In this document: in pieces, positions 24,280 to 24,831 of the stretch | How the letters are laid out: each line of letters opens with the position of its first letter | Numbering within the stretch: the stretch's first letter is position 1 | Origin: Escherichia coli | GTDB lineage: Bacteria > Pseudomonadota > Gammaproteobacteria > Enterobacterales > Enterobacteriaceae | Assembly: GCF_003334305.1 (NCBI RefSeq) | Contig: NZ_QOWS01000003.1 | DNA length: 64,000 nucleotides | Reading direction: 5' to 3' (one strand) | Program-made: the position numbers and the translations under genes | The notes under the pieces: model-generated | The model's input: the letters and a program-made list of their open reading frames with translations, nothing else | What the model was told of the DNA's origin: nothing | Databases searched by the model: none

Positions 24280-24831
24280 ATGGCTATCAAAGGATTGTTT
24301 GTCAGAACGGATCCGCAGCGTCGCCGCTATGGCGTTGCGTTACTTGTGGGTGTACTTTCAGGCATTATTTCAGCATTTGTTAAATGGGGAGCGGAAGTCC
24401 CCTTGCCACCGCGCACATTTTCCGGTGGTCGCGATGAATTTAACCCGCCGTATATCTTTCTACGAGATTATTTAGGTATCGACCCAACCCAAACTGTGTA
24501 CACATTCTCGGAACATATTATCAACCCGGTGATGGTGACGCATATCATCTTCTCACTGGTTTTTGCGATAGGGTATTGTGTTGTCGCGGAAATTTTTCCG
24601 AAAGTGAAATTATGGCAGGGGATATTAGCAGGGCTTATTGTGACAGTGGCAGTCCACGGTATATTTTGCCCGGCGCTGAATTTAACGCCGCCGCTCACTC
24701 AATTGCCTTTTGACGAATATGCGTCTGAAATCCTGGGGCATATTTTCTGGTTCTGGATAATAGAGATTATGCGCCGCGACTTACGTAATCGCATTACTCA
24801 TGAGCCAGATCCGGAAGTCGCAATTCGGTGA
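24280..24831 (+). CDS. YagU-like (DUF1440) inner-membrane protein
   Basis: 183-aa ORF; RRRYG...[14 protein letters not shown]...NPPYIFLRD...[15 protein letters not shown] resembles the YagU family; hydrophobic segments. Confidence 0.6.

Follow-up and report, generated by a model that had tools for sequence, protein, structure and literature searches.

A short-form yagU paralog between ulaF and yjfY looks like an old presence/absence polymorphism of Escherichia coli

Some strains of Escherichia coli have a gene for a short member of the YagU (DUF1440) family just downstream of ulaF, and this gene looks like an old presence/absence polymorphism. We studied it in a stretch of 64,000 nucleotides (contig NZ_QOWS01000003.1 of assembly GCF_003334305.1), which we call the window. 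Comparisons of the surrounding sequences suggest that the gene is more likely to have been lost by K-12 than to have been newly inserted. Our best overall explanation, to which we give a probability of about 0.7, is that this is a selectively maintained gene for a four-helix inner-membrane protein and an old neighbor of ulaF, that the protein would act under acid conditions, and that the gene would be expressed by read-through from the ula operon.

The gene and its protein family

The open reading frame for the YagU-like protein is confirmed as a real, intact gene. It begins with ATG and ends with TGA in the list of ORFs. A RefSeq genome with 100% identity across this region has the ORF at matching coordinates, where PGAP chose the same ATG and gave it the name "YagU family protein" (WP_000985137.1). 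The protein is already catalogued and annotated in public databases and is no new object: exactly this sequence is found on at least 1,000 public contigs, labelled as E. coli DUF1440/YagU family. The gene is the sole content of a segment that has no counterpart in K-12-type genomes (Table 1). The edges of this segment are uncertain by a few bases, as both are A-rich (TTAATAAAAT on the left and TATAAAAAAG on the right). Upstream is ulaF, known in K-12 as the last gene of ulaABCDEF; the gap from ulaF to the ATG is 94 nt and is mostly occupied by a stem-loop.

Table 1. Features around the YagU-like gene, in window coordinates.
Feature	Coordinates	Strand	Basis
ulaF (L-ribulose-5-phosphate 4-epimerase)	23499..24185	+	ORF list; RefSeq annotation of a 100% identical genome
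Stem-loop after ulaF	24193..24242	+	10-nt perfect arms; folding energy; compensatory pairs
Segment of ~591 bp without counterpart in K-12-type genomes	24251..24841	.	Spans of 809-810 vs. 1401 nt; junction alignments
Shine-Dalgarno-like AGGTG	24271..24275	+	4 nt 5' of the ATG; sequence reading
CDS of short-form YagU-family (DUF1440) protein, 183 aa, predicted inner-membrane	24280..24831	+	ORF, Pfam, BLASTP, AlphaFold, dN/dS
Intrinsic terminator of yjfY	24842..24865	-	Hairpin 24848-24865 then T6 on the minus strand; terminator scan
yjfY (DUF1471 family), convergent with the YagU-like gene	24906..25181	-	ORF list; RefSeq annotation

We are almost certain that the protein belongs to the YagU/DUF1440 family. 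Residues 29–163 match Pfam's DUF1440 model (PF07274) over its full length (positions 1–135 of 135; E = 4.6e-45, 153 bits). Using BLASTP, we found that it is 57% identical, across 199 alignment columns, to K-12 YagU from MG1655 (WP_001019920.1). An earlier note on this DNA had recognized the family from four motifs; the window protein has all four, and they line up with those of K-12 YagU. A scan of the NCBIfam profiles did not match any dedicated HMM, and a scan of the PADLOC profiles gave no hits. In an alignment of 45 sequences that reaches down to 25% identity, the residues of the family that are invariant or at least 90% conserved are all found in the window protein: K35, G37, E39, P43-P44, P56-P57, H88, Y99, G114, G118, H126, P131, and S149-E150.

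The window protein and K-12 YagU share the DUF1440 domain, these motifs, and the conserved histidine, glutamate, and glycine positions, and the same four-helix architecture is predicted for both. However, the window protein has 183 residues instead of 204, and it lacks about 21 residues of YagU's first periplasmic loop, including both of YagU's cysteines. In the BLASTP alignment, this appears as a gap of 18 residues and a few shorter ones in the first extramembrane loop. Also, the two genes are at separate loci (paoA-yagU-ykgJ in K-12, and ulaF-gene-yjfY in the window) and are only ~66% identical at the nucleotide level, and the carrier genomes that we sampled contain both of them. The different locus, the gap in the loop, and the presence of both genes in carriers indicate that the YagU-like gene is a short-loop paralog of yagU, and not its ortholog or a displaced yagU. 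Similar short-form proteins of 183–187 amino acids, with the same short loop and 73–91% identity to the window protein, are found in Salmonella enterica, Pseudocitrobacter, Citrobacter, Hafnia, Serratia, the Klebsiella oxytoca group, Providencia, and Vibrio cincinnatiensis. We searched the literature on DUF1440 and yagU and did not find a study of the YagU-like paralog, and we know of no biochemical activity for the DUF1440 family.

An AlphaFold2 model that was built from the 45-sequence alignment (pLDDT 88.4, pTM 0.85) has long helices at residues 17–39, 83–105, 107–132, and 144–173, with a short helix and a hairpin within the loop at 40–82. A Kyte-Doolittle scan flags segments that match the first three of these helices; helix 144–173 is amphipathic and is below the threshold. 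From our reading of the sequence, charged residues R9, R14-16, K108/K110, and R165-R171 are on one side of the membrane and the acidic 40–82 loop is on the other. The protein is predicted to be a multi-pass inner-membrane protein, and this charge distribution would place both the N terminus and the C terminus in the cytoplasm. Given that topology, the near-invariant residues E39, H88, H126, and E150, along with the less conserved E146 and H154 (80–86% of sequences), would lie near the periplasmic ends of the helices. No function could be transferred from structure: Foldseek against AFDB50 returned DUF1440 proteins only, we found nothing like the fold beyond the DUF1440 family among solved structures or annotated AlphaFold clusters, and the one match from a profile search against PDB sequences was at chance level (E = 0.17).

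Distribution in E. coli and gene neighborhoods in other species

Among 5,426 complete RefSeq genomes of E. coli, 604 (11%, or about 1 in 9) contain the segment, and in every carrier genome that we examined, it lies between ulaF and yjfY. Each of the 604 copies spans 80% or more of the segment. In a sample of 60 rows, coverage was 98–100%, and no frameshifted or pseudogene feature lay beneath the match. The copies fall into two allele classes, with 343 at 99% identity or above and 261 at 95–99% identity (about 98.2% in most of the sampled rows). Judging from a sample of the strain names among the 604, the gene is present in E. coli W, in outbreak strains of O104:H4, in an O22:H8 strain, and in a strain with the label ST167.

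MG1655 and 4,821 other complete genomes lack the segment; these include O157:H7, ST131 (JJ1886), ST1193, and ST361. In non-carriers, the interval spans 809–810 nt instead of the 1,401 nt in the window, and homology restarts at position 24842. All of the non-carriers that we sampled, except for one, have this same shortened interval, which suggests that the gene-less state of E. coli is a single allele. Thus, the earlier note was correct that this position is empty in K-12 and that the gene is accessory content in E. coli.

We noticed two other kinds of variation nearby. Downstream of rplI (window 27059-29000 and beyond, minus strand), there are genes for a TRAP transporter (a substrate-binding protein and a large permease); K-12-type genomes have yjfZ instead. 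About 1,448 of the 5,426 complete genomes have the TRAP version. Because all four combinations of the TRAP genes and the YagU-like gene occur, the two polymorphisms appear to be unlinked. Within the ula operon, two patches (21473-21872 and 22473-22872) are 92–96.5% identical to a K-12-type genome, as compared to 96.5–99% for neighboring 200-nt blocks; this pattern looks like a recombination mosaic.

To examine other species, we scanned one genome per species and obtained 53 loci with relatives of the gene. The order ulaABCDEF-gene-yjfY-rpsF is found in Escherichia whittamii, Pseudocitrobacter faecalis, contigs from Salmonella enterica isolates, and L057. Hafnia alvei, H. paralvei, Budvicia aquatica, and B. 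diplopodorum also have the order ulaE-ulaF-gene. In all, the gene adjoins ulaF on the same strand in five genera (Escherichia, Salmonella, Pseudocitrobacter, Hafnia, and Budvicia). At about 40 other species loci, including those of Citrobacter, Klebsiella, Serratia, Providencia, Rahnella, and Vibrio, the short-form gene is on its own in unrelated neighborhoods, away from the ula genes. We considered STM4389 of Salmonella LT2 as another copy of the YagU-like gene, but we dropped it, as STM4389 is YjfY (PMC4092069).

Across the taxa in which the gene is linked to ulaF, its amino-acid identity drops in step with that of UlaF. Compared to E. whittamii, the gene has 93.1% nucleotide identity and dS = 0.33 (ulaF has dS = 0.26). 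The dN/dS ratio of 0.022 in this comparison points to strong purifying selection.

The ula operon of P. faecalis (L004 1-3860) is mostly 90–97% identical at the nucleotide level to that of E. coli (window 20900-24185), and over most of the operon it is closer to E. coli than Salmonella's is. Its YagU-like gene and yjfY are only ~65–75% identical to those of E. coli. This step in identity suggests that the ula genes were exchanged recently, with the breakpoint where ulaF ends.

Expression and the link to the ula operon

The stem-loop between ulaF and the YagU-like gene has a predicted folding energy of -28.5 kcal/mol (z = -3.55), and it is kept in all six of the species or alleles that we aligned, with five compensatory pairs. 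What follows it varies: the window has CUCUCCAG and no U-tract, the K-12-type allele has GUUUUUC, and Pseudocitrobacter has U8. Across window positions 24186-24250, E. coli has two versions that are 68% identical, and each version is shared with either E. whittamii or E. albertii. A search of Rfam gave nothing for the stem-loop, and our terminator scan did not call it a terminator. Also, a promoter scan from ulaF to the ATG found no sigma-70-like site. In Hafnia, the spacer between ulaF and the gene is just 26 nt, contains AAGGAAGG, and has no hairpin, which suggests an operon-like junction.

Based on the short spacer of the window, the lack of a promoter-like site, the stem-loop without a U-tract, and the arrangement in Hafnia, the YagU-like gene would most likely be transcribed by read-through from the ula operon, which is induced by ascorbate. 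At the other end of the gene, the earlier note had described a hairpin terminator of the gene's own. Instead, this hairpin has its T6 on the minus strand and not on the plus strand, our terminator scan called it for the minus strand alone, and genomes that lack the gene have an identical copy. The strand of the T-run and the presence of the same hairpin in gene-less genomes imply that it is the terminator of the convergent yjfY. In a plus-strand transcript of the YagU-like gene, the hairpin gives a stem with no U-tract.

Two Rfam matches lie nearby. The 3' end of yjfY and its terminator overlap a sub-threshold match to STnc280, a family of Salmonella small RNAs (24836-24909, minus strand; 28 bits versus a gathering threshold of 80; E = 0.019). 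This may be an RNA derived from the 3' untranslated region, or it may be a chance match. The other match is to the RpsF leader (RF02893; 25426-25510, plus strand; 110 bits versus a gathering threshold of 37), which is known to serve as the autoregulatory leader of the operon rpsF-priB-rpsR-rplI.

The conserved position next to ulaF raises the alternative that the YagU-like protein is a dedicated seventh component of L-ascorbate utilization, rather than a general acid-stress protein. For instance, it could partner the UlaABC transporter in the membrane, or it could handle acidic or oxidized products of ascorbate. This would fit with the gene's location directly 3' of ulaF, on the same strand, in five genera; with the apparent operon in Hafnia, where the short spacer includes a strong ribosome-binding site; and, upstream of the window's gene, with the absence of a promoter-like site and with a stem-loop that has no U-tract. 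On the other hand, K-12 uses ascorbate without this gene, which is missing from 89% of E. coli genomes. In Pseudocitrobacter, a strong T8 terminator separates the gene from ulaF. Furthermore, Citrobacter, Klebsiella, Serratia, Providencia, Rahnella, and Vibrio have the short-form gene away from ula genes. Since it stands alone in most other genera, the link to ula may be positional only.

We consider a dedicated role in ascorbate metabolism to be possible and weakly supported. In its strongest form, short-form YagU would be an overlooked seventh ula gene of the Enterobacterales, co-transcribed with ulaABCDEF and protecting the membrane during ascorbate fermentation; we think that both this and the specific roles suggested above are unlikely. 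If it were true, then the seventh gene would have been missed because K-12, in which the system was defined, has an old deletion haplotype, and the presence/absence polymorphism in Escherichia and Salmonella would be maintained by niche-dependent selection. We prefer the explanation in which the gene is an old neighbor of ulaF with a role in acid.

Age of the two haplotypes and proposed function

Outside of E. coli, the gene is also absent from E. albertii and a Salmonella lineage (whose UlaF is named for subsp. arizonae). In E. albertii and the gene-less Salmonella, the spacer is 128–129 nt, as in K-12, and the junction is homologous. These junctions run from the stem-loop to (C)GTTTTTC or CATCTTTCAG, then to a run of A's, and then to the terminator of yjfY. 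The gene-less alleles in E. albertii and Salmonella imply that the empty state is old, and it appears that both states are.

The 65 nt that follow ulaF give a consistent picture. Gene-bearing E. coli is 96.9% identical to gene-bearing E. whittamii in this region, and gene-less E. coli is 95.4% identical to gene-less E. albertii, yet gene-bearing and gene-less E. coli are just 68.3% identical to each other. Between the same E. coli genomes, ulaF and yjfY are 98–99% identical. Because this region groups by haplotype instead of by species within Escherichia, these appear to be two deeply diverged haplotypes that are shared by several species, through long persistence or through introgression.

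The simplest history is that the YagU-like gene is an old resident just 3' of ulaF in the Enterobacterales. E. coli would then have two old haplotypes, one with the gene (about 11% of complete genomes) and one that is missing ~591 bp. In the latter, which would include K-12 and most strains, the stem-loop after ulaF abuts the terminator of yjfY. The A-rich runs at the ends of the segment (TTAATAAAAT and TATAAAAAAG in the window, and TTAAAAAAT and GTAAAAAAG in E. whittamii) would permit a deletion of ~591 bp by slippage, possibly more than once. We think that an ancestral gene with later deletion is likely. By parsimony, this polarity is favored by the linkage in Hafnia and Budvicia, by the divergence of the gene in proportion to that of ulaF, and by the lack of a mechanism for insertion. 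It does not have a visible remnant of the gene behind it. We looked for remnants in the K-12 junction and found an 8-mer, GTTTTTCA, that matches the 5' end of the gene from E. whittamii, and TTTTTCAAAAAAA, which is also found 3' of the stop codon in L057; the placement of both is ambiguous, and we give neither any weight. Because E. whittamii was the sole representative of Escherichia that the species scan returned, several losses or introgressions are needed. The main point against the ancestral gene is its lower GC content of 47% (47% at third positions), versus 57% (70% at third positions) for ulaE and ulaF, although yjfY is at 47% as well.

The earlier note had described the gene as inserted, and a recent horizontal insertion of a small accessory gene into some lineages of E. 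coli would account for its absence from K-12 and 89% of complete genomes, for its low GC content relative to the ula genes, for the short A-rich sequences at both ends of the segment, and for its sparse distribution in Escherichia, with E. albertii lacking it and E. whittamii alone representing the genus in the species scan. However, E. whittamii, Salmonella isolates, Pseudocitrobacter, and L057 have the gene in the same slot, and its link to ulaF extends to Hafnia and Budvicia. The alleles within E. coli differ by 1.8% and the copy in E. whittamii differs by 7%, which is species-level divergence and is proportional to the divergence of ulaF. At the segment itself, we found no inverted repeats, IS fragments, mobility genes or integrase, or convincing target duplication, but only short repeats at the level expected by chance. 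A recent insertion therefore seems improbable, and the direction of change in the earlier note was probably backwards.

It is similarly improbable that the ancestral gene is now a dispensable relic that E. coli no longer uses and is losing. Most E. coli, E. albertii, and some Salmonella have lost it, and most genomes contain the paralog yagU. However, every one of the 604 copies covers most of the segment, the 60 sampled rows show no pseudogene or frameshift feature, the gene has kept its start codon and ribosome-binding site, and the dN/dS versus E. whittamii indicates strong purifying selection.

If the old gene is maintained by selection, what might it do? YagU, an inner-membrane protein, is induced about 16-fold by external acid but not by cytoplasmic acid (PMC2270276), and at pH 2, 19% of a yagU mutant survived, as compared to 70% of its parent (PMC1626474). 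Also, yagU is a direct target of CpxR (PMC7657598), and OmpR binds upstream of it (PMC5217608). The reported binding is in the long upstream region of yagU, whereas the YagU-like gene has only its 94-nt spacer. By analogy with YagU, the YagU-like protein probably would protect the envelope at low external pH. Our best guess is that the periplasm-facing cluster of histidines and glutamates would respond to external acid or buffer it and would help to keep the inner membrane intact. Taken jointly, the proposed function and the proposed route of expression are tentative, and we put them at somewhat less than even odds.

The finding is real but ordinary, and it has little practical value. It puts right what is likely a misreading, in that the difference between the strains would reflect a loss in K-12 instead of a gain in the window's strain. 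It also shows that well-used strains such as E. coli W and O104:H4 have an uncharacterized paralog of YagU, which could confound the phenotypes of yagU knockouts in studies of acid resistance outside of K-12. Finally, the operon-like link to ulaF in Hafnia offers a testable clue to what DUF1440 proteins do.
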